From an uncultured Candidatus Saccharibacteria bacterium (GTDB taxonomy: Bacteria; Patescibacteriota; Saccharimonadia; Saccharimonadales; CAZNVG01), in the NCBI GenBank assembly GCA_964576475.1, contig CAZNVG010000015.1, forward strand, positions 1 through 23,694: a DNA stretch of 23,694 nt, in the 5' to 3' direction. This document shows, one piece after another, positions 272-18,527 of this stretch. Below the pieces are notes generated by a model that was given only the letters and a program-made list of their open reading frames with translations, was not told where the DNA came from and ran no database searches. Position numbers and translations under genes: made by a program. Position 1 is the first letter of the stretch. Every line of letters begins with the position of its first letter.

Positions 272-1603
272 GTGAGCAAAGTAACGAAGCAATCCCATGA
301 GAACATTGATGCATCTGCAACGCGTAAAAACAAACTAATTACCAAGATAGTACGGCATCCAGCAGTCCTCGCGGGAGTGCTTGTTGTGGTCGCGGTCGCA
401 ACCTTAGTTGCGGTGAATGCTGCAACAGTTCGAAAGAGTGTTCGCTTTGGGCTCGGCGGCGGTAGCCTCACTGGTACTGCAACTTCCCAACCGGATGGTA
501 GCGTTGCTTTTGCTTCAGGCGGCGGTGGTAGCGTTGCATCAGGTAAGTTCTATGTTGTCGGTAAGCAAATAGTAGATCCTGATGGAAATATATTTAGACC
601 AATGGGGGCTAATGTTGCGGTTAGACAGGCACCGTATCTCGAGAAGAACTTTGTATTTAACTACTTTGGAACAGCCAACGGTAAGAGCGAGGAAGTAAAA
701 GCTTGGGGCTGGAATACAATTCGTGTCAACGTAGCTTGCAACATAACAAGTAACCCATCGGTTAGCGAAACACTGGCTGGTCTTGATGAACTGATCAAGG
801 AATACACAGCCAAGAAACTCGTCGTGATGATCGACTGTCACGATGGCAACATTACTGTTAAGGACGTCAATTACGACAACCCATCGGTACAGAGCGCTAT
901 GAACTTCTTTGATACTTTAGCGAAAGCATACAAGAACAATCCTTATGTTTGGTTCAATACAGTGAACGAACCTTGGGGAAGTAGCAATATACCGCAGTGG
1001 TCAGATCTGCAAAACAAACTCTACGCACGCATTCGTGCCAATGCACCAGACAATATCTTCGTTGCCGACCTGTCAGGCGGGGGCAACGCTATAGAGAATC
1101 TTGTAGACGGCAACTTGCACGGCACGTATGGCGCCGGTAAGTGTAACCTTGTGTACGGATGGCATTCGTACGGCTTCATAAATGGTTTTGCTGATGACGC
1201 CAAGCACAAAGATTACATAAACCGACTTTCTGCTATGAATATACCTATGGTTGTAGGCGAACTCGGCGATCCTCTCAATGAGTTCGGTCAGCCACTCACA
1301 GCTCTTGGCTATCCAGGGGTGGCCGGCAACCCAACTCAAAACCGCATTGGTGCTAATGCGGTGATTAGTTACGCCGCACCCGCCGGGTATGGCTTACTGT
1401 GGTGGCATGCAACAGGTGATACAAATAGTTCGATTACGTATTCACTAACAACACGCAAGATTGCTCCATGGCTTGTTAACTCCTCTAACCTTAGCGAACT
1501 ATCTGCTACTGGTCGTCGTTATTGGGATGTGTCCCATCAAAACCATATACTCGGTAAGTTTACGGGCAATTTGAAAAACAGTAACTGTCCATCAGCTCCG
1601 TAG
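272..1603 (+). CDS. Membrane-anchored glycoside hydrolase family 5 (cellulase/mannanase-like)
   Basis: 443-aa ORF with a GTG start. Its N-terminus aligns residue-for-residue with the next gene (MSKVTKQSHENI vs MPKVSKQEHGSI), which supports the start. A basic stretch is followed by one TM helix. The GH5 acid/base NEP motif is present (FNTVNEPWG), as is the nucleophile GE (MVVGELGD). The ORF ends in a triple stop TAG TAG TAA. Confidence 0.7.
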   Translation: MSKVTKQSHENIDASATRKNKLITKIVRHPAVLAGVLVVVAVATLVAVNAATVRKSVRFGLGGGSLTGTATSQPDGSVAFASGGGGSVASGKFYVVGKQIVDPDGNIFRPMGANVAVRQAPYLEKNFVFNYFGTANGKSEEVKAWGWNTIRVNVACNITSNPSVSETLAGLDELIKEYTAKKLVVMIDCHDGNITVKDVNYDNPSVQSAMNFFDTLAKAYKNNPYVWFNTVNEPWGSSNIPQWSDLQNKLYARIRANAPDNIFVADLSGGGNAIENLVDGNLHGTYGAGKCNLVYGWHSYGFINGFADDAKHKDYINRLSAMNIPMVVGELGDPLNEFGQPLTALGYPGVAGNPTQNRIGANAVISYAAPAGYGLLWWHATGDTNSSITYSLTTRKIAPWLVNSSNLSELSATGRRYWDVSHQNHILGKFTGNLKNSNCPSAP

Positions 1604-1632
1604 TAGTAAATAATGCGAAAAGGCAATCTACT

Positions 1633-2874
1633 ATGCCAAAAGTTAGCAAACAAGAACACGGCAGTATAAATACAAAGCAAGCTCGAGCTAACGCTCGGGT
1701 AATGAGATATGCTCGCCATCCAATTACGATTGTTGTCATACTCCTGATAGTTATTGTTGGCGCAATTGTTGCAGTGCGTGCGGCGGGTGAACGCAAGAGT
1801 GTACGCTTTAGCTTGAGTGGCGGCTCAATCTCAGGTGGTGCGAGCGACACTGGAGGTAGTGTGGCGTTTGGCATTGGCACAACTAGCTGGTGGAAGCCGG
1901 CTCAGAATACGAAGTGGCAATGGGTGCTTAATGGAAAAGTAACGACTAATGAACTGGCTCGCTTTGACATGTACGACGTTGATCTGCAAAGCATGGTTCC
2001 GGCTCCTACCACACAAGAAGTAACATGGGCTAATGGACACAAGGCAACGATCACATGGCCAAAAGGTACCGAGAATCCAGGTATGATTCAAACCCTTAAG
2101 AGTAATGGCAAAAAGGTTATTTGTTACATCGACACAGGAGCGTTCGAAGATTATCGTCCAGACGCGTCATTGTTCCCGGGTAAATGGGGCGCGGCAAATA
2201 ATCGTGCACCAAGTGCCAACGGTGGCGGTCAGGACTTATGGGGTTCGACTGTTCCGTACGCTGGTCCGCCGCAATACGCCTCGCTTGATGTAATTGGTGG
2301 TGATTCAGAGGACAGCTCTGGTGCATCATTCAGTGGTGAATACTGGCTCGACCAACGAGAGCCAGCTTGGAAGGAAGTCTGGGGACCGATAATTTGGGCA
2401 CGGCTTGATCTTGCTAAAAAACTTGGTTGCGACGGTGTAGAGGGTGATCAGAACAACGCGTATGGCAATGACACGACATTTGGCGCCACACAGGCAATAA
2501 GCTTGCGGCTTTACCGAGAATTCTACTATCAAGCACACCTTCGTGGACTGACTGCAATTAGTAAAAACGGTATTGAGCTGACAGCTCAGCAAGTAACTGA
2601 ACCAGGCACGGCAGCTATTAGTTACTGTGCACCAGGGTTATGTGTTCCCGACGGAATACTTAACGAGGAATGTCAGCAATACAATGAGTGTGGTGACCTC
2701 GATCCGGCAACCAGCAAAGGTATGTGGGTAGGGCAGGTGGAGTACAAGGGCACGGCAACGTCAGTGTGTAGTGGCACAAATGGCGCAAATGCGAAAAAGC
2801 GTATGGCAATGAAAAAACCAGTTACCGATCCGGTTGATGAACGAATCTCGTTTGCCTGCTGGGAAACCCCGTAA
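1633..2874 (+). CDS. Membrane-anchored glycoside hydrolase family 114 (endo-alpha-1,4-polygalactosaminidase-like, PelA/Ega3 type)
   Basis: 413-aa ORF. An AAAGG Shine-Dalgarno sits about 10 nt upstream of the ATG. GH114 hallmarks from memory of the family: KWQWVL, KVICYIDTGAFEDYRPDASLFP, IIWARLDLAKKLGCDGVEGDQNNAYGND, ECQQYNECGDLDP...VGQVEY. It has the same N-terminal leader module as the GH5 gene. Confidence 0.7.
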   Translation: MPKVSKQEHGSINTKQARANARVMRYARHPITIVVILLIVIVGAIVAVRAAGERKSVRFSLSGGSISGGASDTGGSVAFGIGTTSWWKPAQNTKWQWVLNGKVTTNELARFDMYDVDLQSMVPAPTTQEVTWANGHKATITWPKGTENPGMIQTLKSNGKKVICYIDTGAFEDYRPDASLFPGKWGAANNRAPSANGGGQDLWGSTVPYAGPPQYASLDVIGGDSEDSSGASFSGEYWLDQREPAWKEVWGPIIWARLDLAKKLGCDGVEGDQNNAYGNDTTFGATQAISLRLYREFYYQAHLRGLTAISKNGIELTAQQVTEPGTAAISYCAPGLCVPDGILNEECQQYNECGDLDPATSKGMWVGQVEYKGTATSVCSGTNGANAKKRMAMKKPVTDPVDERISFACWETP

Positions 2875-2877
2875 CGG

Positions 2878-3648
2878 CTACAATCTTCCGTCAAGTATTA
2901 GCGTGCCGTCCATCGTTTCTATAAAGCCAACGATGTGCTCTGTAGTCTGAGTGGTTGATTCTATTGTCATACTAAGTGGAGCTGTCTTGTAAATATGTCG
3001 AGCTGTAGCTTCCTGTTCGGTGGAGCGCATTGTGCCGAGTTGAGTGTAGGTGTGCGATGGAAGTAATTCAGGTTTTTCGTTGTTCGCCCATATTGGACCG
3101 AACCACGTGTCGCGGAGAACTTCTGCACCTCCAGAATGCGGTTCGATAATTCGCAACATTATAGTGCGCATGTGGGAGCGAGCGGAAGGGTCGTCCACAA
3201 ACTGACGACTAGCCAGTCGCGGCCTCTTCGCATCAAACAGCCCAATTTGTATTGTTTCGTCGACAGCGAGTTTTCCGACATCTAAAAAGCCCCATGTTTT
3301 TACATCCATATCAATAGATCGTCTGTAGTTTTCGTTGGCCAACTCCATCTTGCGTAGGTCAAAGGAGTGTTGTAAATGATGCGCTAATTCATCGTTGCCG
3401 ACAATTTGCGCGTATAGAGCGGCAAACTCTACTGGAGAGAGTTCGGATAGACGTTCGGCAATCAAGGGTTCCGATACACGAACAAACGCTTCGGTGAATA
3501 CGGCATCGAGATTATCATCTGGCTGTGTCTCATCTTGCAAGCGGGCAGTAATATAGTCATGAATAGACTGCGCCATCTCTAAAGTGGTTTCGTCAGGCAG
3601 TATATCTGTCGGTGTTGGCTCGCTTGGTGAACGTTTTTCTCGTGCCAT
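2878..3648 (-). CDS. Hypothetical protein (no recognised domain)
   Basis: 256-aa ORF convergent with the GH114 gene. On the minus strand a GGAG Shine-Dalgarno lies 6 nt before the ATG, with TATAGT upstream. Coding-like composition. Confidence 0.6.
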   Translation of the reverse strand: MAREKRSPSEPTPTDILPDETTLEMAQSIHDYITARLQDETQPDDNLDAVFTEAFVRVSEPLIAERLSELSPVEFAALYAQIVGNDELAHHLQHSFDLRKMELANENYRRSIDMDVKTWGFLDVGKLAVDETIQIGLFDAKRPRLASRQFVDDPSARSHMRTIMLRIIEPHSGGAEVLRDTWFGPIWANNEKPELLPSHTYTQLGTMRSTEQEATARHIYKTAPLSMTIESTTQTTEHIVGFIETMDGTLILDGRL

Positions 3649-3933
3649 ATGTGACGCTCCGTTTTATAACTATACACATTCGTCGTCTACGACTCATCAG
3701 CATGGCTGGTTTCATCCATGGTGTGTAGGTGAGGGTGCTTGCTTGTAATGGTGTCGCGAACGACAAATCCAGAACAAGAGCACTCCTCACAGGAGATTAG
3801 CGGTCTCTCCCAACCGAGTGATTTTCACGAGTGCTCACAACGTGAGTGCCGTGCTGTACTGATCACTACTTCAGTAGTTCACTTTGACCCCATAGTAGGT
3901 CCTAGTGCGAACAAACTAGTTCATCGGACTGCT

Positions 3934-5937
3934 TCAGCTGTCGGAGGACTCCGGCTCGGCTGCGCCGACGGTCGCCAGTTCCGGCTTGTGGCCGTTGTCG
4001 TTGACCTGGCCGGCCGCAAGCGATGCCATGACCATGGCGCTGATCGCGTCGCCGGTACCGCCCGAGCTGCCAACCTGGATGTTCGGCGTGATCACGACAC
4101 GGCCCTTGGCGATGGCTTCGATGACTGCGACTGCAGCCGTCTGCGCCTCGCCGATGGCCTCCTTCTGAGCCTGGAAGCCCGCCGCGACCGCGAGACCCTT
4201 GGCCTTCTCGGCATCCGCCGTGGCGGTACCGATCGCCTTGATCTTGGCAGCTTCGGCATCGCCGACCGTGGTGGTCACCTCGGCCTTGCCCTTGGCTTCC
4301 GCGACGTTGGCTTCTGCCTCACGCGTCTTGATCTCGACCGAGACCTTCGCCTTGGCGAGGTCGCCCTGCATGTCGGCTTCACCGCGCTGCGCTTCGAGCG
4401 CGACGCGTGCCTGCTGGGCGTCCTGCTGAGACTTGAAGGTCTCCTTCTCCTGCGCCGCGATCTCGCGTGTCGTCAGAACTTCGACGAGCGATTGCGGGAA
4501 CACGACGTCCTGGATGTAGACACCGCGGACTTCGACGAGGTAGTCCTCGAGGTAGTCCTTGATGTACGTCATGGCGTCGGCCTGGACGGCGGTACGCGTC
4601 TCGATGAACTCCATGGCGGTGAGTTCCTGCAGCTTGTTCCGGAAGTGGTTGCCCACTGCCGACTGCAGGACCTCGTTGACCAGGTTCTCCATCGAGGCGA
4701 CGCTGCCGATGACGCGAGGCGCGTTGGTGTCGGGCACGTGGATCTGAACCTGCAGATCGATCTTGAAGCTGAAGGCCTCGCGGCTCTTGGCTTCGATCGG
4801 GCTGAGGTTCGCGTCCAGGCTGTGTGCCTCGCTCGTTGCGTTCGCCCAGTTGAGCGTCAGGATCGAGGTCGGCACGATCTTCGCCTGGTAGATGCGCGGG
4901 TTCAACGGGTACTTGCCCGTGCGCAGCGATTCCTTCCAGATGCCCCGATGTCCCGGCTGGACGATCGAACCATGCTTGTACGTCTCACCCGAGGTGTCGA
5001 GCGGCGGCAAGCCCACGTAGGACTTGATGACGCCGACCTCACCTTGGTTGACGACCAGCATCGGCACGATCTCGACCGAGAACAGGAACGGGTTCAGCAG
5101 GTAGGTGCCGTAGAGCAGCGGGTCGTGTTGCAACCCGATGCGTCCGCCGGCCTCCAGGAACGCTTCGAAGTCCTGGTAGTTGTTGTGGAGGTTGTTCTTC
5201 GTCCCCAACAACAGCTGGATGATCTCTGCGTCGCTGGCTCCCTCGGCTTCCTTGGCCGTGATGTCCTCGAAGCCACCCAGCCGGCATGCCATGTCGCCCG
5301 AGGGCAAAGGCGGTCCTTCGTTCGCCGTGACGATGCCGATGTAGTCGACCGAGTCGTCGTTCGGGTTTGGCCGAATGACGGTTGTCGACAACTGATCGGG
5401 CGTCAGACGAGAGATCGCTGCCGAGGTGCCCTCGGAAACGACCTTGCCGTAGGTGGCGCCGAGCGTTGCGACGGCGAAGGCGACAGGATGCATCGGGATG
5501 GTCGTGCCTGGAGGCAGAACCGGCCGTTGCACACCGCGCTGACCGCCGTTCGCCATGAAGGCTGGCAGATCACTGAAGTCACCGAGTGCCGGCGTGTATT
5601 CAGCGGTCTTCGCACCGGGAACGGTCGGGTTGCCGACCTGTGCGATGACCACGCCGATGCCGCCAGGAGGAATCTGCACCCAAGGGTACAGCTCCACCTT
5701 GTAGAGCGGCCACAGCTTGAATCGCCAGCCCGGCATCAGAACATCGGGTTGATAACCGGCTTCGCCCTTCTGGGCGATGAGCTGGTTCTCGCCCTTCTTT
5801 CCCCATGCCTTGGTGACCAGTCCGATCTTGGACGGGCCGATGTTGTGCAGGGAATTCGTGATGAACTTCCAGAGGAAGAGCAACACCACGAGTCCGCCTG
5901 CAGCGAATCCGATGAGTTTGAAAGGTACGTCGTCCAC
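3934..5937 (-). CDS. Flotillin / SPFH (band-7, YqiK-like) membrane scaffold protein. High-GC island 1.
   Basis: N-terminal TM helix (FKLIGFAAGGLVVLLFLW), then an SPFH domain, then a C-terminal Ala/Glu/Lys-rich flotillin repeat region ending ...KGRVVITPNIQVGSSGG. This matches the canonical flotillin C-terminus. Preferred start is GTG at 5937, preceded by AGGAGA (5946-5941). The spacing is only 3 nt, so the start is uncertain. The six-frame ORF runs on to TTG at 6003, and an in-frame ATG at 5994 would add 19 low-GC residues. Strong GC3 bias on the minus strand. Confidence 0.75.
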   Translation of the reverse strand: MDDVPFKLIGFAAGGLVVLLFLWKFITNSLHNIGPSKIGLVTKAWGKKGENQLIAQKGEAGYQPDVLMPGWRFKLWPLYKVELYPWVQIPPGGIGVVIAQVGNPTVPGAKTAEYTPALGDFSDLPAFMANGGQRGVQRPVLPPGTTIPMHPVAFAVATLGATYGKVVSEGTSAAISRLTPDQLSTTVIRPNPNDDSVDYIGIVTANEGPPLPSGDMACRLGGFEDITAKEAEGASDAEIIQLLLGTKNNLHNNYQDFEAFLEAGGRIGLQHDPLLYGTYLLNPFLFSVEIVPMLVVNQGEVGVIKSYVGLPPLDTSGETYKHGSIVQPGHRGIWKESLRTGKYPLNPRIYQAKIVPTSILTLNWANATSEAHSLDANLSPIEAKSREAFSFKIDLQVQIHVPDTNAPRVIGSVASMENLVNEVLQSAVGNHFRNKLQELTAMEFIETRTAVQADAMTYIKDYLEDYLVEVRGVYIQDVVFPQSLVEVLTTREIAAQEKETFKSQQDAQQARVALEAQRGEADMQGDLAKAKVSVEIKTREAEANVAEAKGKAEVTTTVGDAEAAKIKAIGTATADAEKAKGLAVAAGFQAQKEAIGEAQTAAVAVIEAIAKGRVVITPNIQVGSSGGTGDAISAMVMASLAAGQVNDNGHKPELATVGAAEPESSDS

Positions 5938-5974
5938 ATGTCTCCTTTGATAGTGTGCGTGGGCAATCAAATAT

Positions 5975-6003
5975 ACTATAAAACTTCGTTGCATAAATAG
6001 CAA
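5975..6003 (-). promoter_or_regulatory. Sigma70-like promoter TTGCTA-17nt-TATAGT upstream of the flotillin gene
   Basis: On the minus strand the -35 TTGCTA is at 6003-5998, the spacer is exactly 17 nt, and the -10 TATAGT is at 5980-5975. It is AT-rich, in the background style, and sits immediately upstream of the GC-rich CDS. Confidence 0.4.
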
Positions 6004-6113
6004 TGAATGACTATGAAATATTTACAAATCGTCAAAAACGTACATAGCACCATTGTCTGTAGATAGAAGTCGTTAGACTTGCGAGTGGAAGGTAAACCCT
6101 CTAGTCTAAGGTT

Positions 6114-7394
6114 ATGCCTAAACCAAAAATACTACTTAAGAAAGTCGCTGCAAAGCTTGGACTAATCGCTGCACAAACAGAAGCTAGAGCGGTTGACGAG
6201 GCGCTTGACTATATTGCTGATTATTGGGAGACGCTTAAGCGTGAACATATTGAAGACAGTGGCACAATTATAGGTTTGCCAAATCCGTATATTGTTCCTG
6301 CGACGGACAAGAAAGCTCGCTTTTCCTTTGAAGAGCAGTATTACTGGGACAGTTATTTCATAGCTTTAGGGTTAGTGAACACAAAACATCAGAAGATAGC
6401 CGAGGGTATGCTCGAGAACCTCCTGCATATATATAAACGATTCGACTTTATACCAAACGCCAGTCGAATGTATCTGATGAGCCGTTCGCAGCCTCCAGTA
6501 CTCACAAGTTTTATACGGCTCATATATGAAACTGGTAAGAAAGATCACCAATGGCTAAAAGATCATATGGCAGTTGCTGAGGACGAATATAGAAAAGTAT
6601 GGATGAATGATACGCACCCACTGTGGCATCGCGTTCATAAAGGACTTAGTCGATACTATGACGTAAATGTGTTGCACGATCTTGCAGAGGCTGAATCTGG
6701 GTGGGATATGACGCCGCGTTTTGAGAGAAAATGTCTTGACTACTTACCCATAGATCTTAACTCGTTGCTCTATAAGTATGAGATGGATTTTGCGTGGGGC
6801 GCACAAATATATGGCACAGCAAAGCAGGTGCATGCATGGCAGAATAGCGCGCGCAAACGAAAGAACGAAGTAGATAAACTCATGTGGCATAAACGTAAGG
6901 CCATGTATTTTGATTACAACTACGCTAAGTCGCAGCTTGGGGATGTCTGGTCGCTGGCTGGATACTTCCCGCTATGGTCGGGAATGGCCTCAGCAGAGCA
7001 GGCTGAGCGACTGGTACGTAATATTACCAAGTTCGAACAAACTGGAGGGCTTACGACAACGACGCGCCCTCTTATAGATACGAGTATCTTCGGATCGTTA
7101 AAGACACAGTGGGCCTATCCAAATGGGTGGTCTCCACTTCATTGGGTGGTTATTGAAGGACTTGAGAACTATGGCTATCATGACGACGCACAAAGAATCG
7201 CTCATAAATGGATTCACACCAATTTAGACTGGTATGAGCGACATGGGGAGTTTATTGAAAAATACAATGTCGTTAATCCACGAAAGCATCCTGTAGAAGG
7301 TGTTTATCCTAGTCAGAGCGGATTTGGGTGGACGAACGCAGTGTTTGCGCGCCTGGTAGAAAAATATCCGTTCGATCAAGTTAGCGAGCAGTAA
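6114..7394 (+). CDS. treF: Trehalase, GH37 (cytoplasmic TreF-like, no signal peptide)
   Basis: Trehalase signature 1: ARFSFEEQYYWDSYFIALGL (compare PGGRFxExYxWDxY). Signature 2: QWAYPNGWSPLHW (compare QWDxPNxWAPL). Also DLAEAESGWDMTPRF. 426 aa. Confidence 0.85.
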   Translation: MPKPKILLKKVAAKLGLIAAQTEARAVDEALDYIADYWETLKREHIEDSGTIIGLPNPYIVPATDKKARFSFEEQYYWDSYFIALGLVNTKHQKIAEGMLENLLHIYKRFDFIPNASRMYLMSRSQPPVLTSFIRLIYETGKKDHQWLKDHMAVAEDEYRKVWMNDTHPLWHRVHKGLSRYYDVNVLHDLAEAESGWDMTPRFERKCLDYLPIDLNSLLYKYEMDFAWGAQIYGTAKQVHAWQNSARKRKNEVDKLMWHKRKAMYFDYNYAKSQLGDVWSLAGYFPLWSGMASAEQAERLVRNITKFEQTGGLTTTTRPLIDTSIFGSLKTQWAYPNGWSPLHWVVIEGLENYGYHDDAQRIAHKWIHTNLDWYERHGEFIEKYNVVNPRKHPVEGVYPSQSGFGWTNAVFARLVEKYPFDQVSEQ

Positions 7395-7977
7395 AGTAGT
7401 CAACCCGTACGACCTGCGACATCGCCACCTGTCCAACTGTGGCTTGCGTATATGGTTGTTCAGACGCCCACTCAGTGCTGGCGCGCAGTGTCGGTAGATC
7501 AAGTATTCTCTCCCAACTCGCTACTATATGCGAATTTCTGGTCGTCATGTCCTCGCCAGCAGCGCGAGCCTGGTTATAGTCGGCATAGAATTCATCGTAC
7601 TCTGTCTCGCTGAGAGGCACTAGCGACGGATTGGAGCCGAGAAGCATGTGCCAGCTGTCGTAATCACTCAGAAGCACCTCGCTCTTTGGTGCACGAAAAT
7701 GTACCCGAACACCATCTGTCCCACGCTCTAAGTGGTATCTGTTTCTTAAATCTGGTTTTGGTTCAGCCCAGGCCCAGATGGGATAGTTGCCCTCATAATT
7801 GACGAGACGTTCGGTCATTTTTTGCATCAACCAACGATAGGCGGGCCTAAAATCAGTATGTGCAATACGCCTTCCATCTGCGCGAAGAACGCCTTTTGTT
7901 TCTGCTTGACGCCAAAATTCGAGCGGCTGTATTGTCCAAAGCTGCAGTTCGCTGGTCTCCATGGGTAGGTCACTCAT
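7381..7977 (-). CDS. Hypothetical protein, resembles DUF3841-type proteins (recollection only)
   Basis: 198-aa ORF. Its 3' end overlaps the trehalase gene convergently by 14 nt. Starts MSDLPMETSEL... TATACT lies 19 nt upstream of the ATG on the minus strand. Confidence 0.55.
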   Translation of the reverse strand: MSDLPMETSELQLWTIQPLEFWRQAETKGVLRADGRRIAHTDFRPAYRWLMQKMTERLVNYEGNYPIWAWAEPKPDLRNRYHLERGTDGVRVHFRAPKSEVLLSDYDSWHMLLGSNPSLVPLSETEYDEFYADYNQARAAGEDMTTRNSHIVASWERILDLPTLRASTEWASEQPYTQATVGQVAMSQVVRVDYFTAR

Positions 7978-8021
7978 ATAAAACTATTGCTAAAGTATAG
8001 CAAAAATGATCTTATAGTGAT

Positions 8022-8777
8022 ATGGAAATGCTTGTCGATAAACATCTCTATGACTTTGAACTCTGGGAACGAGAGCTCAAAACAATGAATAGCGACGAGT
8101 TACGTGAGCGATTCTTTCTTGATGTGCAATCATGGACTACATTTGAAGACAGAGCACAAATGTCGGCAGCGTTTGAACTTGCGGCATTCTTGCACGCAGA
8201 CGACCAGTACGGCAATGACGAATATACGAGACATACATTTAGAGTAGCGACTCGACTTGAGCATTATTATGGAGTGCGTGATGTTAATGTATTGACCGCA
8301 GCACCCCTGCACGACAGTGTTGAGGATCATCCAAAACTCATGGAGTTATTGTTGCCGAGCGATCTGCGTCGAGAAAACACAAATGCATCGGCGCTTCATT
8401 TTATTGAGCAGACTTTTAATGCAGATGTTGCATATCTGGTTGCAGGTATGACCAATCCTTGGTTTGGCGATAATCTCTCACTTGAAGAATTTCATGCAGC
8501 TTACCAACAATCGGTTTCCGATAAGATTCAGGGAGACCCCCGAAAAGCGGTTATCAAAGTAGCCGATATTGATGACAATGCACTCGGTCTACACCATGCA
8601 CCCAGCCTTGCGTTTCAGAAGCGACAAGTACCAAAATATGCGCCAATTCTGCCTATTATTAGACAGGAACTCCTGACTGGCATGCTACCGTCTGTTATGT
8701 CATCCGCGGCAGTGCCACATCTCCTTGCTAAGATAGACGCTGCTGAAGTGCGTTTTGCGGGAATTCTTTCGCGATGA
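8022..8777 (+). CDS. HD-domain metal-dependent phosphohydrolase
   Basis: The H...HD...D arrangement is present (RHTFRVATRLEH ... LHDSVEDHP). 251 aa. Its stop overlaps the next ORF start as ATGA. Confidence 0.65.
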   Translation: MEMLVDKHLYDFELWERELKTMNSDELRERFFLDVQSWTTFEDRAQMSAAFELAAFLHADDQYGNDEYTRHTFRVATRLEHYYGVRDVNVLTAAPLHDSVEDHPKLMELLLPSDLRRENTNASALHFIEQTFNADVAYLVAGMTNPWFGDNLSLEEFHAAYQQSVSDKIQGDPRKAVIKVADIDDNALGLHHAPSLAFQKRQVPKYAPILPIIRQELLTGMLPSVMSSAAVPHLLAKIDAAEVRFAGILSR

Positions 8778-8932
8778 GCGACGATCCGCTTACGTGTGCA
8801 GAGAAAATGGCATATGACTCACAACAGGAGGCGGAGGCTGCATCTACGACTCTTGCCTACCGGCATGGCGAAAAGTTGAAAGTGTATCTTTGCAGAGAGT
8901 GCCATCTTTGGCACATGAGTTCCAGAGGGTAG
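8774..8932 (+). CDS. Small (52 aa) Cys/His zinc-ribbon-like protein, translationally coupled to the HD gene
   Basis: Not in the ORF track because it is under 60 aa. The ATG at 8774 overlaps the upstream TGA at 8775-8777 (ATGA). Sequence: MSDDPLTCAEKMAYDSQQEAEAASTTLAYRHGEKLKVYLCRECHLWHMSSRG. It contains C8, C40-x2-C43, H44 and H47. It ends TAG at 8930-8932, 6 nt from the convergent gene. Confidence 0.4.
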   Translation: MSDDPLTCAEKMAYDSQQEAEAASTTLAYRHGEKLKVYLCRECHLWHMSSRG

Positions 8933-8938
8933 GGCTAC

Positions 8939-9676
8939 CTAGATAGTTTCTTCGTTTGCGGCAGGATGGGTGTAGTCTTCAAGTGCAAATACTTCTGCTG
9001 GTTCGGTATTTCGTTGATCGAGTAAATAGTCAATTCCTCGCTTGAAATAGACACCAGTTACACCGTAGCTAAAGGCAAGGGATCCAATAGCGGCAACGTT
9101 TGTAGCCGACCTGAGGTTTTCACTGGCTACTGGATAACTTTCTTCCATGGCTTTACTTGTTAAGTAGCCAGCCATCGTAACACCAGTACTGACGAACGCC
9201 CACCGTCCAGCCTCAATTGGCTTCACAGCCTCTTTGCCGAATACTTTAGCGCCTATCGTAGTGGTGCCAACCGTCAATGCTTCTCTAGCTATCATTGCTT
9301 GCACATAGGATGTTGGTGCAGCCTGTGTTTGAGCGAGACTCCTCGACGTATCTACGGCAAGAATTCGGTCTGCTGTGGCATCAAGAATCTGACCCCAAAT
9401 AGAAGCACCACCGAGCCATCCTTTCTTAGCCACATAGCCGTCAACTGTGTCGAGAGCAAATGCGCCGACCACCATAGCGCCTCCGCTCCAGTATCTTCCT
9501 TCTCGAATACGACGATTTCCATAGAAACCAAGCGCCATACGGCCAGCGGTAATAGCGTTGGCGCCAGTCAGTACTTTTTTAGAAGGATTTTTTTCGGTTC
9601 CGAGTGGCACTACTTTGTCACCACTTTCAGTATGTAATCGATAATTTGTAGGTTCTTGCATGCAGTCATTGTACAC
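8939..9676 (-). CDS. CDP-alcohol phosphatidyltransferase family protein (PgsA-like)
   Basis: Motif DTVDGYVAKKGWLGGASIWGQILDATADR fits D-G-x2-A-(R/K)-x8-10-G-x3-D-x3-D. 245 aa. A second Met at 9661 is an alternative start. Confidence 0.6.
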   Translation of the reverse strand: MYNDCMQEPTNYRLHTESGDKVVPLGTEKNPSKKVLTGANAITAGRMALGFYGNRRIREGRYWSGGAMVVGAFALDTVDGYVAKKGWLGGASIWGQILDATADRILAVDTSRSLAQTQAAPTSYVQAMIAREALTVGTTTIGAKVFGKEAVKPIEAGRWAFVSTGVTMAGYLTSKAMEESYPVASENLRSATNVAAIGSLAFSYGVTGVYFKRGIDYLLDQRNTEPAEVFALEDYTHPAANEETI

Positions 9677-9745
9677 AATGGCACTGCAAAAACCACAAGC
9701 AGTTCATTTGCGTTAACAGGGGTAGTTAGTGTACCGTGTAGTCAT

Positions 9746-10414
9746 ATGAATACCCGAACAATACATATTATTACGTTGTTCCCCGACATGGTGTCTGGTG
9801 TTCTAAACACGAGCATGATGTTCAAGGCGCAGGACAAACAACTCATTCGGTTTAACATTATTCAGCTCAGGGATTATGGTCTTGGTCCGCGTAAGCAAGT
9901 TGATGACACGCCTTATGGCGGTGGTGACGGCATGCTGTTGAAGCCAGAGCCGTTATTTTCAGCTGTTGAAGCCGCCAAGGAGATTTCTCCCAAAGCCGCC
10001 GTCTTACTTATGACACCTCGGGGTGAACGATTTGATCAGGCTTGCGCGCAATCAATTTGTGACGAAGGAAGAGATCTTATTTTTATATGTGGTCGATACG
10101 AAGGGTATGACGAGAGAATTACGCAAATAGTCGATGAGCAACTGTCGGTGGGCGATTATGTATTAACAGGAGGAGAATTGCCTGCATTGACAATCATCGA
10201 CGCCGTGGTGCGTTTGATCCCTGGGGTGCTTGGCGGAGAACAAAGTGCACAGATAGAATCTTTTTCTGACGGAGAGACGCTCGAGTTTCCTCAGTACACT
10301 CGGCCAGAGTCATTCAGGGGACAACAAGTGCCCGAGGTGCTACTGAGTGGTAATCATGCAGAAATAGAAAAATGGCGCCAAGCGCAGTCCAAAAAATCAC
10401 CGCCGCGAGTTTGA
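9746..10414 (+). CDS. trmD: tRNA (guanine37-N1)-methyltransferase
   Basis: Starts MNTRTIHIITLFPDM. Conserved TrmD features: ...PYGGGDGMLLKPEP..., GRYEGYDERI and YVLTGGELPA. The track's 9656 start would overlap the divergent gene, so I prefer the in-frame ATG at 9746. Confidence 0.9.
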   Translation: MNTRTIHIITLFPDMVSGVLNTSMMFKAQDKQLIRFNIIQLRDYGLGPRKQVDDTPYGGGDGMLLKPEPLFSAVEAAKEISPKAAVLLMTPRGERFDQACAQSICDEGRDLIFICGRYEGYDERITQIVDEQLSVGDYVLTGGELPALTIIDAVVRLIPGVLGGEQSAQIESFSDGETLEFPQYTRPESFRGQQVPEVLLSGNHAEIEKWRQAQSKKSPPRV

Positions 10415-10439: not shown

Positions 10440-10490
10440 AACGCTTAAGTGAGGTTTCTGCCACCTCTGTCAAGCTCACTTACAAAACCC

Positions 10491-11621
10491 ATGAAATCAA
10501 TTACTAACCTGCCCATAAAGAGCATTCTGACTAGAGAGGTACACGCACTCTCAAAGCGTTTGCGTCCGCTTATTTCGCGCTCAGCGCTTATTATTCATAT
10601 TGCTTTAATTTCTGGACTTTCAGTATTTGTTTACCAGTCATCACATCATCGTAGATTGAGCTCAGCGCCAATTGTGCCACGTACCGTAGAATCAGAGGCG
10701 CCGGCAGTCATTGACGAAGTTGCTTCTGCCGGGATTGCTGCTGTAGTTGCCAAAACGGGCGGGCTTACCGAAAAAGAAAACGTTGCCAACCAAGCAGACT
10801 CGCTTACTGCACAGGTCAACTTCGCTACAGTAGACGAGAACTACCTGGCGCGACCCCAGATCGTTGTGACAGATACAAAAACGCGCAAGGACATCATCAC
10901 TTATAAGACAGTAGGTGGAGACACTGTTGGCTCACTAGCTGCTAAGTTCAACGTTACTTCCGACACTATACGATGGGCCAATGGTCTAACTGGTGATGCA
11001 CTCGCGCCAGATAAGGAACTACAGATCCCACCAATTAATGGCGTACTTTACACAGTTAAAGCTGGCGATACGCCAGAATCACTCGCTTCCAAGTACAAGG
11101 CAAGTAAAGAACAGATTATTTTCTTCAATGACATCGAGCTAACGGGACTAAAGGCTGGCGAGAAAATCATGATCCCTGGCGGCTCTATTGAAGCTGTGGT
11201 CGTGCGCACTACTAGAACAAGTACCTCTACATCGAGTTCATCGGGCAGCTATGGCTTCGCATTTGGTACGGAACCGCTTTATGGTGGAAACGGCTACAGT
11301 CTTGGCTACTGTACGTGGCACGCCGCTAATAGACGAATACAGATAGGGCGACCGCTCCCAAGAAACCTCGGCAACGCCGTTACGTGGTATGCACTCGCAC
11401 AGCAAGCTGGTATCGCCGTCGGTAGTCAGCCGCAAGCAGGTGCCGTGTTATGGCACAGGGACCGTAGCGCTGGTGGCGGACTCGGACACGTTGCCTTTGT
11501 TGAGAAGGTAAACGAAGACGGCAGCATTCTAGTGTCAGATATGAACTATCCAATTTGGAATCGAATTACAACGCGCACAATACAGCCGAGCGAGTTTGGT
11601 CGATACGGTTTCATTTACTAA
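10491..11621 (+). CDS. Secreted/membrane-anchored peptidoglycan hydrolase with two LysM domains and a C-terminal CHAP domain
   Basis: N-terminal TM helix (ALIIHIALISGLSVFVY). Two LysM repeats (YKTVGGDTVGSLAAKFNV...; YTVKAGDTPESLASKYKA...). Ser/Thr linker (TTRTSTSTSSSSGS). The CHAP domain has a Cys in GYCTWHAAN and a His in GLGHVAFVE. The ATG at 10491 is preferred over the upstream GTG at 10449. Confidence 0.8.
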   Translation: MKSITNLPIKSILTREVHALSKRLRPLISRSALIIHIALISGLSVFVYQSSHHRRLSSAPIVPRTVESEAPAVIDEVASAGIAAVVAKTGGLTEKENVANQADSLTAQVNFATVDENYLARPQIVVTDTKTRKDIITYKTVGGDTVGSLAAKFNVTSDTIRWANGLTGDALAPDKELQIPPINGVLYTVKAGDTPESLASKYKASKEQIIFFNDIELTGLKAGEKIMIPGGSIEAVVVRTTRTSTSTSSSSGSYGFAFGTEPLYGGNGYSLGYCTWHAANRRIQIGRPLPRNLGNAVTWYALAQQAGIAVGSQPQAGAVLWHRDRSAGGGLGHVAFVEKVNEDGSILVSDMNYPIWNRITTRTIQPSEFGRYGFIY

Positions 11622-13000: not shown

Positions 13001-13052
13001 GCTAGGTGAGGTACGTGTGCTTTTATGACAGAGCACACCTATCTCATCTAGC
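13001..13052. repeat. 21-nt imperfect inverted repeat (hairpin) in the leader of the island-2 gene
   Basis: Left arm GCTAGGTGAGGTACGTGTGCT (13001-13021), a 10-nt loop, right arm AGCACACCTATCTCATCTAGC (13032-13052). There is 1 true mismatch and 2 G-U-compatible positions. A perfect TTGACA lies at 12979-12984 just upstream. Confidence 0.5.
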
Positions 13053-13119
13053 AAATGGAAACACCCACTTGCAGCAATCAGAGATTGTCGGCATCAAGCC
13101 GAGTGAGAGAGAGGAAATC

Positions 13120-14001
13120 ATGACCTCGGTCATCACCCGCAAGTCCACCCACCCCTTCACCAACCTGACCATCAAGACCAAGACGAAGGTCTCGGGCTTC
13201 ACCGCCGGCACGGAGACGGTCATCAACGAACTGCTCACGCAGCTGTTCGGTGACTTCGTCTCCGCCATCGACCTCGTGGAGCCCAAGCTGCAGAAGCTCA
13301 TCACCGAGCCGATGCCCGGCCAGTTCACCAAGTCGCGAACCAGCATGGTCAGCGGCGTCAACGGTGTGCGCGTCGAGGTTCAGGTCGACGTCCAGATCGA
13401 CTCGATCGTCGATGCCGAACGCATCAACGAGATCGTGTCCTTCCTGTTCGAGCCGATCCTCAGCACGTCGATGTCGGCGATCGCACGTGGCGGTCTGTTC
13501 ACGCGCACGGACCTTCAGCGTCTGCGCAGCGAACACCTTCCGCCGTTCGCGGACATCGTGAGCCAGCTGGCCGGCTTCGTGGCGTCGACGTTCCAGTCGA
13601 TGGGCAGCAAGCGCACCGACTTCGGTTCGCGTCACAACTTCAGCGCCTTCGACAAGACGTTCATGCAGAACGAGAACCCGGATCGCGACCTCTACTCGCG
13701 CCTCGGTGATCTCGCCACGCGAGCACACCGCAAGGGTGCCGGCGCGCATCGTTCCGGAGCCGACACGTCCTTCTCGACCACGTCGGGTTCGATGTCCGGC
13801 GAGGACTTCCTCGAGCGACTCGGCGATCTCGATCGCTTCTTCGCTCCCGGCTTCGGTCTCGTCGACGCCATGGAGGAGAGCCCGCTCTTCGAGCGCATCG
13901 TCGGTGACGGCTTCGTGCTCGAGATGTTCGAGGTGGTCCCTCCGCCGTTCAAGACCTACGGCGACCTCAAGGATCGCCGACGCGACAGCGCCACGAGCTG
14001 A
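13120..14001 (+). CDS. Hypothetical soluble protein, no recognised domain. High-GC island 2.
   Basis: The ATG at 13120 is preceded by GAGAGAGAGG with 5-nt spacing. Strong GC3 bias on the plus strand (ACC TCG GTC ATC ACC CGC AAG TCC ...). No TM helix. 293 aa. The antisense ORF 13078-14055 is an artefact. Confidence 0.65.
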   Translation: MTSVITRKSTHPFTNLTIKTKTKVSGFTAGTETVINELLTQLFGDFVSAIDLVEPKLQKLITEPMPGQFTKSRTSMVSGVNGVRVEVQVDVQIDSIVDAERINEIVSFLFEPILSTSMSAIARGGLFTRTDLQRLRSEHLPPFADIVSQLAGFVASTFQSMGSKRTDFGSRHNFSAFDKTFMQNENPDRDLYSRLGDLATRAHRKGAGAHRSGADTSFSTTSGSMSGEDFLERLGDLDRFFAPGFGLVDAMEESPLFERIVGDGFVLEMFEVVPPPFKTYGDLKDRRRDSATS

Positions 14002-14016
14002 TCGTCGGGTGAGTAC

Positions 14017-14051
14017 GGGGCAGCAGCCACGAGAAAGAAGGCTGCGCCCCC
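14017..14051 (+). terminator. GC-rich stem-loop downstream of the island-2 gene (factor-independent terminator of high-GC type, weak T-tract)
   Basis: GGGGCAGCAGCC (14017-14028), an 11-nt loop, GGCTGCGCCCC (14040-14050). That is about 11 bp with one bulge, followed by ...GGGTCGTTTCC. Confidence 0.45.
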
Positions 14052-14174
14052 ACAAGGGTCGTTTCCAATCAATTCTTTCTCCTCTGGCTGTCTGTCCCCC
14101 TCACTTCAATGACTACTTTGTCATTCTGACGAGTCCTCTGTAAGGACGAAAAGCGAGGTATACTAAGGTCAGTT

Positions 14175-15603: not shown

Positions 15604-15975
15604 ATGCAAAATCCTAACGTCAAAACGTTCTCTATGCCTCATGTGTCTAAAGAAGAGTTTGTAGCTCAACTATCAATTGCCAGCGAGAGTATTGAGCGCT
15701 ATTATCTGGCTCCTCGACGAGCTTCTCTGCCTACAGCCGAAGTTTGCATAGGAGGGCTGACAATAATTGTGCGAGAAGTCAGAGCGGACGATCTGGTAAT
15801 TCAGGGCGACGCGCTTATTGCTGGCGTGCACAAAAACGCATGGGAGGAGCACTTGCTGCAATCCTTTGACACGGCTCGAAGCCCTATCCCACTGGCAACC
15901 TTTCGATTGGACGAAAATGCTGAGGTCGCAAGTGTGCGATGCGAAGTTGACATGAGAAAGACAATAATACACTGA
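15604..15975 (+). CDS. Hypothetical protein (123 aa)
   Basis: ORF with a strong promoter immediately upstream. No recognised motif. Confidence 0.5.
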   Translation: MQNPNVKTFSMPHVSKEEFVAQLSIASESIERYYLAPRRASLPTAEVCIGGLTIIVREVRADDLVIQGDALIAGVHKNAWEEHLLQSFDTARSPIPLATFRLDENAEVASVRCEVDMRKTIIH

Positions 15976-16014: not shown

Positions 16015-17235
16015 ATGGAAAATGAACCACAGGCGCACATGACCGCCTCGCAGCAAATACCAAATCCTTTTAGCGGTGAAATGTTTCGTGTAACTATGGA
16101 ACAAAATCATCTGCACGACGTTGTAGTGCGCTTGAATGAGCATTTTGCTAATAAGTCATACGCAACTGAAACGCAGAGCACTAATATTGATGGTACAAAA
16201 CAAGATTGGTTAGTGCTGCCGGGTGTAGAAATTACGTTTAGCGATGGTCAGAAAGGCTATCTACAATTTGCACGTATGAATGATCGTGCTACGCGAAAGC
16301 TAAAAGATCGCTCTCATGATACCTACATTGTTGTTAATGGTGGCATAAGTAATCCGCTCGCGAAACTAGACGTTAACCCTGATGATAATCCTTCTGTAAA
16401 ACTCGTCGATCTTAGCGCTTTGAGTAATATCACCATAGACAGCCCAGAACAGATCAGCGTTATCGACACCATGCTTGAGACACTGGATAACACAGAAGCA
16501 ATGAGAAAACTACATGCTCAGCAGATAGCAGAAAAGGTTATTGCTGAACGAGAAAAGAAACAACAAGAACAGCAAAGGAAGCAAAAGGCGCGTCGCCAAA
16601 AGGCACGTCGATTCATAGGTTCTACCGTAGTGACAACCCTAGTTACAGTAACGGGACTCTCAGCGGTAGGTGCTGCAGCGTACGGAATTAGAGCTGGCGT
16701 AGTCTGGGCTAATCCAGATCAAGAGCAACTTGGTGAGCTGATGCCTAATGACAGCTTTGTGCCAATTGGCGAGGAATCGCGTTTGTATGAAATTGAAGAC
16801 GATGACGTCATGCATGAACTCATTCGCACGCTAGATACGGTCAAGAATGAGTCAGTTAATTCGGACGAGAAGCTGCCTAAGGAAGTGGGCTCAGTAGAGC
16901 CGCAAGGTCGGGTAGGTTCTGTCCTGTCATTTTATCTACCTGATGAAAAGGGAGAATGTGAAGCACTCCCAATACAGTCTCCTCGCGAGGACGACAGCTC
17001 TATTATAGGTGCGCGAGTGCTTACCAGTGCCGGAGCGCCGGGTAATTACTCAGTTAAACTGACCAATGTAAGAACAAAAGTAACTGGCGAGACAGTGGGT
17101 GACTACACGACTGATGTAGCTTGGTTACGAGTGTGCAAGACTTCAGATTTCCGCGACTCGACTCGTGTCGGTGATCAGAATGAAGTGTTTGTCCGTTTTG
17201 AAGACAAAGATACGCTTCCGGAAAATTTGCGATAG
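16015..17235 (+). CDS. Bitopic membrane protein, paralog A (cytoplasmic N-domain, basic coiled-coil, single TM, about 200-aa extracytoplasmic C-domain)
   Basis: The TM helix FIGSTVVTTLVTVTGLSAVGAAAYGI is preceded by KQKARRQKARR (positive-inside). The N-domain is clearly paralogous to the next gene (WLVLPGVEITFSDGQKGYLQFARMNDRATRK vs WLVSPVVETTFTDGEAIELRLARCIDRKVRR). Promoter TTGACA at 15978-15983, then CATAAT. The ATG follows the -10 by 6 nt. Confidence 0.65.
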   Translation: MENEPQAHMTASQQIPNPFSGEMFRVTMEQNHLHDVVVRLNEHFANKSYATETQSTNIDGTKQDWLVLPGVEITFSDGQKGYLQFARMNDRATRKLKDRSHDTYIVVNGGISNPLAKLDVNPDDNPSVKLVDLSALSNITIDSPEQISVIDTMLETLDNTEAMRKLHAQQIAEKVIAEREKKQQEQQRKQKARRQKARRFIGSTVVTTLVTVTGLSAVGAAAYGIRAGVVWANPDQEQLGELMPNDSFVPIGEESRLYEIEDDDVMHELIRTLDTVKNESVNSDEKLPKEVGSVEPQGRVGSVLSFYLPDEKGECEALPIQSPREDDSSIIGARVLTSAGAPGNYSVKLTNVRTKVTGETVGDYTTDVAWLRVCKTSDFRDSTRVGDQNEVFVRFEDKDTLPENLR

Positions 17236-17282: not shown

Positions 17283-18527
17283 ATGAACGAACACTCTGCC
17301 AAACTCTCTTTTGATGGCCCAATGCCATTCACACACCAAACAGTTGAACAAGTTGGAAACGAAGCCAATTTGCACGAAGTGCGACTGCTGTGTGATGACA
17401 TGTTCGATGACAGTAATTTTGTGTCTCGAATAGAGCGGGTTGGTCCAGATAGTAAAAAGCACGTCTGGTTGGTGTCGCCTGTCGTTGAAACAACGTTTAC
17501 TGACGGCGAAGCAATTGAGTTGCGACTGGCTCGATGCATAGATAGGAAAGTTCGACGTGATCCAAACAGTCGATCTGATACCTTTTTGATAATAGGCGAA
17601 GCAATTGAATCGCCACTTGCTGAGTTGTCTGTTCAGACGCATATGCGACCATTTGAGAAAGTAATTGACCATAGCAATCTGGAATCCTTTGATGTGAGTG
17701 AGGAACAATCTAGTCTGCTCGAGCGAACAGCGCGCGAACTGGCTCGTCTTCGAGTCGAAAGTTTGGACGCAAACAAAGACGCCCAAGCGCAGACCGAAGC
17801 TGAGAAGAAAGCAATTAGGAACAGACGAATAGATATCGCCCAGAGGTTCGGACTGGGAGCTGTTGTCGGTGTAGTTGTCGTAGGCTCAATTGTAGGCATG
17901 GGTTTTGCCGTTATCAGCGAGGCTGAAAAAGTAGAGACTCCCGTGATTCATCCAGCCGCTCAAAAGGTTACCAAAGCCACAGAGGGAACGTTTACCGGCA
18001 TTGGGCAATCAGCGCTCGTTCTAGAGCGCGATGAGGAAACATATAGCGCTATCAGTGCAGAGCTTTCTGCCGATTTCAAAGACGCGAACATTACTGAAGA
18101 GTGGGAACAGTTTTATGTAGACGCGAAAAGCCAGCTTGGGCTTCCTAGTGAGGTCTCTGTTGCCAGCCTTAATGGAAGATATGACAAAAACGTATATGAG
18201 TGGTTAGCGCTACCTACGAAGGATTGTCACTTGGTAATGTTTGAATCTGCTACAACTGGCGAAGATCGTATTGTCGGAGTGGAGACAGTCACCAAAGACA
18301 GCGCAAGAGGCGACTACAGTGTTGATGTAGGAAAAAAAGAAATGCGTGTAGATCTTGAAGACGAAGCGGACTACAATGCGCAGATTGTTGCTGCCAATGT
18401 CTGCAAAGTCGGAAGCGTGAAAGACAATCCTTCAGAAGACACCTATGACTGGGCGATTATGCGTGCTGTTACAGCCGAGGAGGCTGGTAGATTAGGCTAT
18501 CCGCTACCACCTGAAACCGAAGGCTGA
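17283..18527 (+). CDS. Bitopic membrane protein, paralog B (tandem duplicate of the upstream gene)
   Basis: Same architecture. Basic stretch RNRRIDIAQR, then TM helix FGLGAVVGVVVVGSIVGMGFAVI. Its own -10 TATAAT (17266-17271) lies 11 nt upstream of the ATG. A shared upstream motif ATAATAGTT precedes both paralogs. Confidence 0.65.
   Translation: MNEHSAKLSFDGPMPFTHQTVEQVGNEANLHEVRLLCDDMFDDSNFVSRIERVGPDSKKHVWLVSPVVETTFTDGEAIELRLARCIDRKVRRDPNSRSDTFLIIGEAIESPLAELSVQTHMRPFEKVIDHSNLESFDVSEEQSSLLERTARELARLRVESLDANKDAQAQTEAEKKAIRNRRIDIAQRFGLGAVVGVVVVGSIVGMGFAVISEAEKVETPVIHPAAQKVTKATEGTFTGIGQSALVLERDEETYSAISAELSADFKDANITEEWEQFYVDAKSQLGLPSEVSVASLNGRYDKNVYEWLALPTKDCHLVMFESATTGEDRIVGVETVTKDSARGDYSVDVGKKEMRVDLEDEADYNAQIVAANVCKVGSVKDNPSEDTYDWAIMRAVTAEEAGRLGYPLPPETEG

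Follow-up and report, generated by a model that had tools for sequence, protein, structure and literature searches.

An N-terminal leader shared by adjoining GH5 and GH114 hydrolases of an uncultured Saccharibacterium: a putative variant of a proposed sorting module of Saccharibacteria-labelled genomes

Conserved and lineage-restricted signatures within Sec signals are known from the YSIRK-G/S and KxYKxGKxW signal peptides (TIGR01168 and TIGR03715), which recur on numerous exported proteins without mutual relationship and presumably direct these towards a certain site or pathway. In surface lipoproteins of Bacteroidota, a short motif at the mature N-terminus, the lipoprotein export signal (LES), follows the cleavage site, is succeeded by a flexible linker and decides on the surface display of many glycan-degrading enzymes. 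At the opposite end of the protein, the LPXTG/sortase system, the PEP-CTERM/exosortase system and the C-terminal domain (CTD) of type IX secretion (T9SS) use a tripartite signal of motif, hydrophobic helix and basic cluster on many cargo proteins, and these signals co-evolve with a dedicated reader. Here, a leader of about 85 residues is described which has features in common with each of these systems. It is shared by two adjoining genes for a GH5 and a GH114 glycoside hydrolase on contig CAZNVG010000015.1 (assembly GCA_964576475.1) of an uncultured Candidatus Saccharibacteria bacterium. The whole stretch of 23,694 nt which was analyzed is termed the window. Saccharibacteria are monoderm; they are ultra-small episymbionts relying on host bacteria and surroundings, and how they export and retain enzymes is largely unknown.

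The leader in the window would be a diverged local version of a module which occurs throughout the Saccharibacteria-labelled genomes that were sampled, and not an invention of the window lineage. In the YSIRK and KxYKxGKxW peptides, the signature is situated in the n-region or early h-region and ends at the cleavage site, whereas the strongest conservation of the module is found after the putative site, in a tag of about 33 residues, and at a Gly in the middle of the helix. The cargo differs as well, being LPXTG adhesins in the former and enzymes in the latter. Both peptide classes were rejected for the leader, as no NCBIfam signal model matched at E ≤ 10 and no YSIRK motif was present. Twin-arginine translocation (Tat) and lipoprotein signals were also rejected, as the window leaders have neither an R-R pair nor a Cys and, hence, no lipobox. 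The LES consists of about five acidic residues after the lipidated Cys, whereas the module has no lipobox Cys and its tag comprises about 30 residues. The sorting domains of the sortase, exosortase and T9SS systems are located at the C-terminus, and the enzymes processing them are known; the module lies at the N-terminus in mirrored order (basic cluster, helix, motif), and no reader was found adjoining its arrays. The usual form of the tag further resembles the first strands of CBM35/CBM6-type carbohydrate-binding modules (CBM; E-A-E-x-G ... SGG-x-x-V), with sub-threshold matches in the PDB, but the tag covers only about a quarter of the length of a CBM, and the variant in the window lacks the E-x-E and ASGG residues altogether. 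Solved Streptomyces enzymes (4fk9, 3wsu) and Ega3 (6oj1) have the same catalytic domains as the GH5 and the GH114 protein, respectively, but without the module leader.

The two genes and the parts of their leaders are as follows (positions of the window; aa, amino acids; AF2, AlphaFold2; pLDDT, predicted local distance difference test).

272..1603, + strand: GH5 gene, 443 aa, GTG start; leader followed by the GH5 catalytic domain (PF00150, E 1e-24)
272..358, + strand: GH5 n-region, residues 1-29, MSKVTKQSHENIDASATRKNKLITKIVRH; 7 K/R and 2 D/E
359..421, + strand: GH5 hydrophobic helix with a putative signal peptidase I site, residues 30-50, PAVLAGVLVVVAVATLVAVNA, then A51; Val at -3 and Ala at -1; aligned to the canonical h-region and A-A site; cleavage predicted
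422..511, + strand: GH5 tag following the helix, residues 51-80, ATVRKSVRFGLGGGSLTGTATSQPDGSVAF; net charge +2; same position as the canonical E-x-E...ASGG-x-AV-x-F tag in orthologues
512..541, + strand: GH5 Gly/Ser linker, residues 81-90, ASGGGGSVAS; precedes the conserved start GKFYVVGK of the GH5 domain
1604..1632, + strand: intergenic gap of 29 nt between the GH5 and the GH114 gene
1633..2874, + strand: GH114 gene, 413 aa; leader followed by the catalytic domain, which starts from WWKP at residue 86 (nt 1888; PF03537, E 2.6e-38)
1633..1719, + strand: GH114 n-region, residues 1-29, MPKVSKQEHGSINTKQARANARVMRYARH; 7 K/R and 1 D/E
1720..1782, + strand: GH114 hydrophobic helix with a putative cleavage site, residues 30-50, PITIVVILLIVIVGAIVAVRA, then A51; helix at residues 30-52 in the AF2 model
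1783..1869, + strand: GH114 tag following the helix, residues 51-79, AGERKSVRFSLSGGSISGGASDTGGSVAF; net charge +1; pLDDT < 50 at residues 57-82 in the AF2 model
1870..1887, + strand: GH114 short linker, residues 80-85, GIGTTS

Because the gap is short and no terminator-like site was found on the + strand between the two genes, co-transcription is plausible to probable.

A preliminary description of the window, made from the sequence alone, had claimed that both enzymes start with nearly the same sequence over about 90 residues before they diverge. This was borne out, with 46% identity over 85 residues and all of the listed motifs present. In BLASTP, the leaders matched over residues 1-59 (44% identity, E 4e-10) and nothing significant was found beyond. 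The MAFFT alignment of residues 1-86 of GH5 with residues 1-85 of GH114 has 39 invariant columns, including M-x-KV-x-KQ-x-H-x-x-I, R-H-P, V-A-V-x-A-A, RKSVRF-x-L-x-GGS and GSVAF. Each leader part was compared separately to 5,000 composition-preserving shuffles. The observed similarity was not reached in any of 5,000 shuffles for the n-region (z 9.0) and for the G/S-rich part after the helix (z 7.8), and in 9 of 5,000 for the helix (z 3.9). Both leaders fit the Sec pattern, with 7 K/R within residues 1-29 followed by 19-24 uncharged residues, and the -3/-1 sites read V-N-A|A and V-R-A|A. Gly43 of GH114 falls into the alignment column of the Gly which is invariant in the canonical h-region.

In six-frame scans with hidden Markov models (HMMs), the module was confined to the GH5 and GH114 open reading frames (ORFs) within the window. 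Two other exported proteins of the window are without it, namely a CHAP+LysM peptidoglycan hydrolase (10449-11621), which has an N-terminal membrane helix and an N-terminus unrelated to the module, and a TPM protein (20081-22372). Because these two proteins use unrelated N-termini, the module does not appear to be simply the local signal peptide, but to be reserved for a subset of exported proteins. In this respect, the earlier view that the leader is not a generic signal peptide was confirmed.

With few exceptions, homologues of the GH5 and the GH114 protein from Saccharibacteria begin with one type of leader, here called canonical, at the equivalent position. The order is a K/R-rich tail, a hydrophobic stretch with a central Gly, the motif [ST]-[RHK]-A-A-T-P, a tag about 33 residues long (x-A-S-[ILV]-E-[PA]-E-x-G-T-x-S-x-x-A-x-V-x-D-x-T-A-S-G-G-x-A-V-[KQR]-F-G), a short S/T/G/P-rich linker and the catalytic domain, which starts with GKFY[IV]VGK in GH5 and WWKP in GH114. 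The profile of the module comprises 56 positions and gives 45-72 bits for canonical leaders, whereas other GH114 proteins with an ordinary signal peptide remain < 10 bits. Among 1.84 billion cluster representatives, it matched 1,828 clusters with E ≤ 1e-3, 285 of which had E ≤ 1e-10, and the module was N-terminal (about residues 2-94) in all 150 matches listed. Around the putative cleavage site, Ala at -1 was present in all of 148 matches, S/T at -3 in 125 and Ala at +1 in 124; position -2 is bulky or charged. The mid-helix Gly was found in 145 of the same 148 matches; within the tag, the counts were 141 and 145 for the two Glu of E-x-E, 138 for the Asp, 145 and 147 for A-S and 144 for the terminal Phe. 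The canonical n-region has a median length of 18 residues and a net charge of +5, and the following uncharged run has a median of 18 residues. In the 25 residues after the tag, S/T/G/P/N/A account for 61% vs 48% in the rest of the protein. Conservation of the module is thus far above that of a generic signal peptide.

No Pfam or NCBIfam model for the module was found; both window and canonical leaders gave noise alone at E ≤ 10. Likewise, full-text literature searches gave no description of it. The module, a putative specialized sorting leader, is widespread and apparently undescribed. It merits an annotation profile of its own, as such leaders are invisible to Pfam and NCBIfam at present.

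The cargo was determined by scanning 116 profile matches with Pfam and was mostly carbohydrate-active or esterolytic: GH16 (nine proteins), right-handed beta-helix (eight), GH26 (six) and alginate lyase (four), further GH5, GDSL esterases and metallophosphoesterases (three each), and single cases of GH114, GH12, GH99, PL14 and others. DUF1996 is also among the cargo of canonical leaders. Many tagged proteins are without any Pfam domain. For the genomic context, one genome per GTDB species was scanned with two narrow peptide patterns, which gave 49 loci, nearly all of them in metagenome-assembled genomes (MAGs) of Candidatus Saccharibacteria, Saccharimonadales or Saccharimonadia. Canonical leaders were also seen on a few contigs binned elsewhere, i.e., loci L018 (3.9 kb, Chlamydiae), L033 (5.6 kb, Limnocylindrales), L043 and L046 (both Parcubacteria). 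As the whole contigs of L018 and L033 comprise only 3.9 and 5.6 kb, mis-binning is suggested for these two; L043 is on a 54-kb contig, and occurrence beyond Saccharibacteria is possible.

Tandem arrays of module genes are common. In six-frame HMM scans of the loci, ten consecutive tagged genes were found in L002, eight in L003, seven in L019 and five in L037, and the GH5-GH114 pair of the window exemplifies such an array on a small scale. In the array of L002 (266-12434), two of the ten consecutive leader genes have a Pfam domain (GDSL esterase) and eight are unannotated. With the tag, the secretome of uncultivated members can be catalogued directly, including tagged proteins without a recognizable domain such as these eight. 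The seven members of the L019 array (1248-10345 of CAVUEQ010000001.1, 829 kb) share a genome-specific n-region ending with R-[RK]-L-S-R-R-Q-A-[LA]. This n-region loosely resembles the twin-arginine motif (S-R-R-x-x-L), whereas other genomes, including the window, are without the R-R pair.

The resemblance of leaders follows the genome and not the enzyme. The identity between leaders was 47% for GH5/GH114 of the window, 44% for GH5/DUF1996 of L051 and 53% for GH5/DUF1996 of L052, whereas leaders of orthologous enzymes across genomes had 19-38%. The closest GH114 homologue, P0047, has an enzyme part 70% identical to that of the window, but its canonical leader is only 23% identical. The same pattern was found for 101 canonical leaders of about 30 MAGs. 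Leaders of non-homologous enzymes from the same genome had a mean identity of 55% (358 pairs) vs 42% for leaders from different genomes (4,212 pairs); for homologous enzymes in different genomes the value was 46%. The observed difference within vs between genomes was reached in 0 of 1000 label permutations. In the L019 array, the genome-specific likeness is visible by eye.

At conserved residues of the leader pairs, the number of identical codons was compared to the expectation from codon usage, giving 16 vs 12.6 for the window, 11 vs 12.8 for L051 and 17 vs 15.8 for L052. In each of the three genome pairs, synonymous sites have reached saturation. Because the identical codons match the codon-usage prediction, recent duplication, gene conversion or other recent DNA exchange was ruled out, and the similarity of leaders within genomes would be held by selection on the protein.

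Compared to the canonical tag, the tag of the window (RKSVRF-x-L-x-GGS...GSVAF) has a net charge of +1 to +2 instead of about -1 to -2. It appears to be a lineage-specific, charge-reversed variant, in which the basic RKSVRF stands in place of the acidic S-I-E-P-E. R-F-G/S replaces E-x-E and G-S-V-A-F replaces ASGG-x-AV-x-F, whereas the Asp and the terminal V-x-F are kept. Since the signature residues E-x-E and A-S-G-G are missing, the window leader was filed as a putative variant and not as a canonical member. Column by column, the window leaders can be aligned to the canonical leaders of their GH5 and GH114 orthologues.

Two related lineages show the same pattern as the window, with a GH5 orthologue near a DUF1996 protein (a family of unknown function) on L051 and L052/L055. 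The positions of the DUF1996 genes are as follows.

L051, 10690-11985, - strand: DUF1996 gene; two genes between DUF1996 and GH5, strand opposite to GH5
L052, 9946-11265, + strand: DUF1996 gene, adjoins GH5
L055, 11243-12610, + strand: DUF1996 gene, adjoins GH5

The DUF1996 leaders match the flavour of the GH5 leader of their own genome, and this extends to the cytoplasmic start (both L052 genes begin with MPTQK). No sampled locus contained variant and canonical forms together: the variant HMM had no match in the 49 canonical loci and the canonical HMM none in the window or L051-L055. Canonical and charge-reversed lineages form a natural co-evolution experiment for genes switching with the tag. 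Relatives of the window variant itself were found neither in GTDB species genomes (patterns M[SP]KV[TS]KQ[SE]H and similar) nor in JGI metagenomes (patterns AA[TG][VE]RKSVR and S[QD][PT][DG]GSVAF). A metagenome scan for the L052-type variant re-found only the same GH5/DUF1996 pair, on a 127-kb contig. A search of the window leaders in a word index of 5.8 billion proteins returned 349 candidates, none of which, including the window's own proteins, had E ≤ 0.01, the short and biased query being underpowered. The lineage specificity claimed by the preliminary description thus holds in part: this sequence variant was found in the window lineage only, whereas the module itself occurs across the sampled Saccharibacteria-labelled genomes. 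Neither is the module a private partial duplication, since the same kind of variant is present on DUF1996 proteins in related genomes and the canonical form on about 1,800 clusters.

On balance, we moderately favour a reading in which the shared 85 residues form a specialized Sec leader, probably cleaved, together with a sorting or retention tag which would be read by a factor common to each lineage. Four parts would be distinguished: a cytoplasmic tail rich in lysine and arginine; a Sec-type hydrophobic helix; a site of the signal peptidase I type, V-x-A|A in the window and [ST]-[RHK]-A|A-T-P in the canonical form; and the tag of about 30 residues, which would become the N-terminus of the mature enzyme, with a flexible Gly/Ser/Thr/Pro linker leading from it to the catalytic domain. 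This architecture is used for the exported polysaccharide-degrading and esterase repertoire of the sampled Saccharibacteria-labelled genomes. Cleavage by signal peptidase I at x-A|A is fairly likely, because the -1/-3 pattern and the mid-helix Gly fit. For the tag, a role in sorting or retention rather than in catalysis may be assumed, since the same tag is found on many families, a flexible linker comes after it and no packing against the catalytic domain is predicted; in the AlphaFold models of the window GH114 protein and of a canonical GH5 homologue, no clear docking of the tag on the catalytic domain was seen. In each genome examined, unrelated enzymes share the flavour of the leader, kept by selection at the protein level, and we therefore infer one shared reader per lineage. 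This might be a surface receptor or wall polymer retaining the enzymes on a very small cell, or a dedicated processing step. One reader would explain that the leaders of a genome change together, including the switch of a lineage from acidic to basic, and the tag is a handle for finding it.

An extended version of this reading is unlikely as a whole. It would state that Saccharibacteria have an N-terminal sorting system of their own, in which the post-cleavage tag docks the whole exo-enzyme repertoire on a lineage-specific surface receptor or wall polymer; strand addition or bridging by calcium might bring this about. A change of the reader would re-code all tags, and the window would represent one such switch from acidic to basic.

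Several observations weigh against the cleaved leader with a shared reader. The hydrophobic run of 18-24 residues would suit an uncleaved anchor, too. AlphaFold gives the tag no confident fold, and the tag of the canonical GH5 homologue is a hairpin only, with a pLDDT of 63-70. No conserved partner gene adjoins the arrays according to a clustering of 803 ORFs from the fetched loci. The most recurrent neighbours besides module genes were considered as candidate readers, i.e., a Big_7/fn3 surface protein (nine genomes) and housekeeping genes or an LCP enzyme (at most five genomes), and none was convincing. Ancient exchange of whole leaders combined with ordinary constraint could yield the similarity within genomes even without a common reader, and an extracellular receptor does not explain why the cytoplasmic n-region is conserved within genomes. 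Concerning the variant, the canonical-only profile gives the window leaders 10.5 bits (GH5) and 6.3 bits (GH114), compared to shuffle maxima of 7.5 and 7.9; a mixed profile including the window leaders gives 31-32 bits, which is circular by construction. The proposed descent of the variant from the canonical module rests on position, architecture, orthology and intermediate forms and not on a significant score. Moreover, the variant type is known from three lineages with about 80 kb of sequence.

Instead of being cleaved, the helix could hold both proteins at the cell surface as type II membrane enzymes, as the preliminary description had supposed with its signal anchor; the tag would then act as a spacer next to the membrane and the Gly/Ser/Thr/Pro stretch as a stalk crossing the wall. 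A hydrophobic run of 18-24 residues is enough to span the membrane and is modelled by AlphaFold as a single continuous helix (residues 30-52). Further, the h-region is unusually conserved (F-A-x-[IV]-G; Gly in 145 of 148), which could reflect helix-helix packing in the membrane, and tethering would be sensible for a very small epibiotic cell. However, the invariant Ala at -1, the near-invariant S/T/V at -3 and the bulky or charged residue at -2 fit a signal peptidase I site and would be needless for an anchor. A Gly in the middle of the helix is typical of cleaved signal peptides, and the tag is conserved as strongly as the helix. An uncleaved anchor is thus predicted to be the less likely option and is considered somewhat unlikely. 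Much less can be said for a leader without special function, i.e., an ordinary Sec signal peptide left as a relic of partial duplication, gene conversion or cassette shuffling between neighbours. The genes are adjacent and module genes often form tandem arrays, which makes recombination easy, and the entire leader including the cytoplasmic tail is shared, as would be expected of a copied cassette. But with saturated synonymous sites in three genome pairs, any exchange must be old and the sequence kept by selection. In addition, the tag beyond the cleavage site is conserved over about 1,800 clusters, the two other exported proteins of the window use unrelated signals, and genome tracking is also seen in the 101 leaders of about 30 MAGs. 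We regard such a relic as highly improbable.

The likeness of the tag to CBM35 allows a third interpretation, in which the tag is a cut-down carbohydrate- or calcium-binding element derived from the first CBM35-type strands. It would target a polysaccharide, either the substrate or the wall, and not a protein receptor, with the window variant binding via its basic residues. The sole PDB matches of the tag profile, which were not significant (E 0.11-1.3 over 20-28 residues), were residues 19-38 of 2wz8 and residues 305-332 of 7bys (SYEAENGQRGGSSTILSGSGFSGGKAV); we take both segments to be the N-terminal strands of CBM35 modules. The cargo is almost wholly carbohydrate-active, and the reversed charge, with R-K-x-x-R in place of E-x-E/D, would be suited to binding an anionic polymer, whether or not a cation acts as a bridge. 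On the other hand, about 30 residues are too short for a beta-sandwich of about 120-130 residues, no Pfam CBM matched even at E 10, and AlphaFold shows a hairpin of moderate confidence at most. A single fixed tag on enzymes with many substrates further argues against substrate targeting, so that this interpretation is improbable.

Both enzyme assignments of the preliminary description are above the Pfam thresholds, and GH114 is additionally supported by a fold match. The GH5 ORF matched PF00150 with 87.9 bits (gathering cutoff 23.5) at residues 132-336, and the GH114 ORF matched PF03537 with 132 bits (gathering cutoff 27) at residues 94-385. In GH5, the clan GH-A motifs NEP (residues 232-234) and GELG (329-332) are present, and E226 and E321 of the homologue P0007 are invariant in an alignment of 38 sequences. 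We take these to be the catalytic Glu residues (acid/base within N-E-P, nucleophile close to where strand 7 ends), as assigned by motif position and not by structure superposition. The closest solved relatives of GH5 are the Streptomyces beta-mannanases 4fk9 (E 2e-12) and 3wsu, within a range of E 2e-12 to 2e-8. The AF2 model of GH114 has a pLDDT of 88. Its top Foldseek match is the endo-alpha-1,4-polygalactosaminidase Ega3 of Aspergillus (6oj1; E 3e-18, template modelling score 0.82 normalized to the target, 21% identity in the fold alignment), which is also the closest PDB match by sequence. Fusarium GH114 (9ep6) is among the best Foldseek matches as well, whereas the PelA hydrolase domain ranks below Ega3. 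As the identity to solved enzymes is low (21% to Ega3; E 2e-12 for GH5), the substrate specificity of GH5 and GH114 cannot be transferred from those or read from the sequence. A matrix-degrading operon directed at a host biofilm, as suggested in the preliminary description, is neither supported nor opposed by these results and may be regarded as speculative. Named homologues of both proteins are from Candidatus Saccharibacteria.

The remaining window contains housekeeping genes of a small genome, including those for Obg, TrmD, exonuclease I and prephenate dehydratase, plus a trehalase-like glycoside hydrolase (PF01204). The latter is encoded at 6114-7394 in the window, at 1960-3198 in L052 and at 2262-3500 in L053, in each case a few kb from GH5, which suggests a conserved neighbourhood. 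Three islands of the window have a GC content of 0.58-0.67 against a background of 0.40-0.49 and could represent either biased coding composition or foreign DNA. The island at 3934-6003 corresponds to an SPFH/Band7 protein with a C-terminus rich in Ala, Glu and Lys, and the island at 20081-22372 to the TPM-domain protein of 763 aa. At about 13100-14100, long ORFs without a Pfam match are found on both strands (13006-14001, + strand; 13078-14055, - strand). Finally, a pair of tandem paralogues (16015-17235 and 17283-18527; 406 and 414 aa) has 24% identity (E 6e-26), no Pfam domain and a central hydrophobic stretch, and is preceded by an ORF of 123 aa at 15604-15975.

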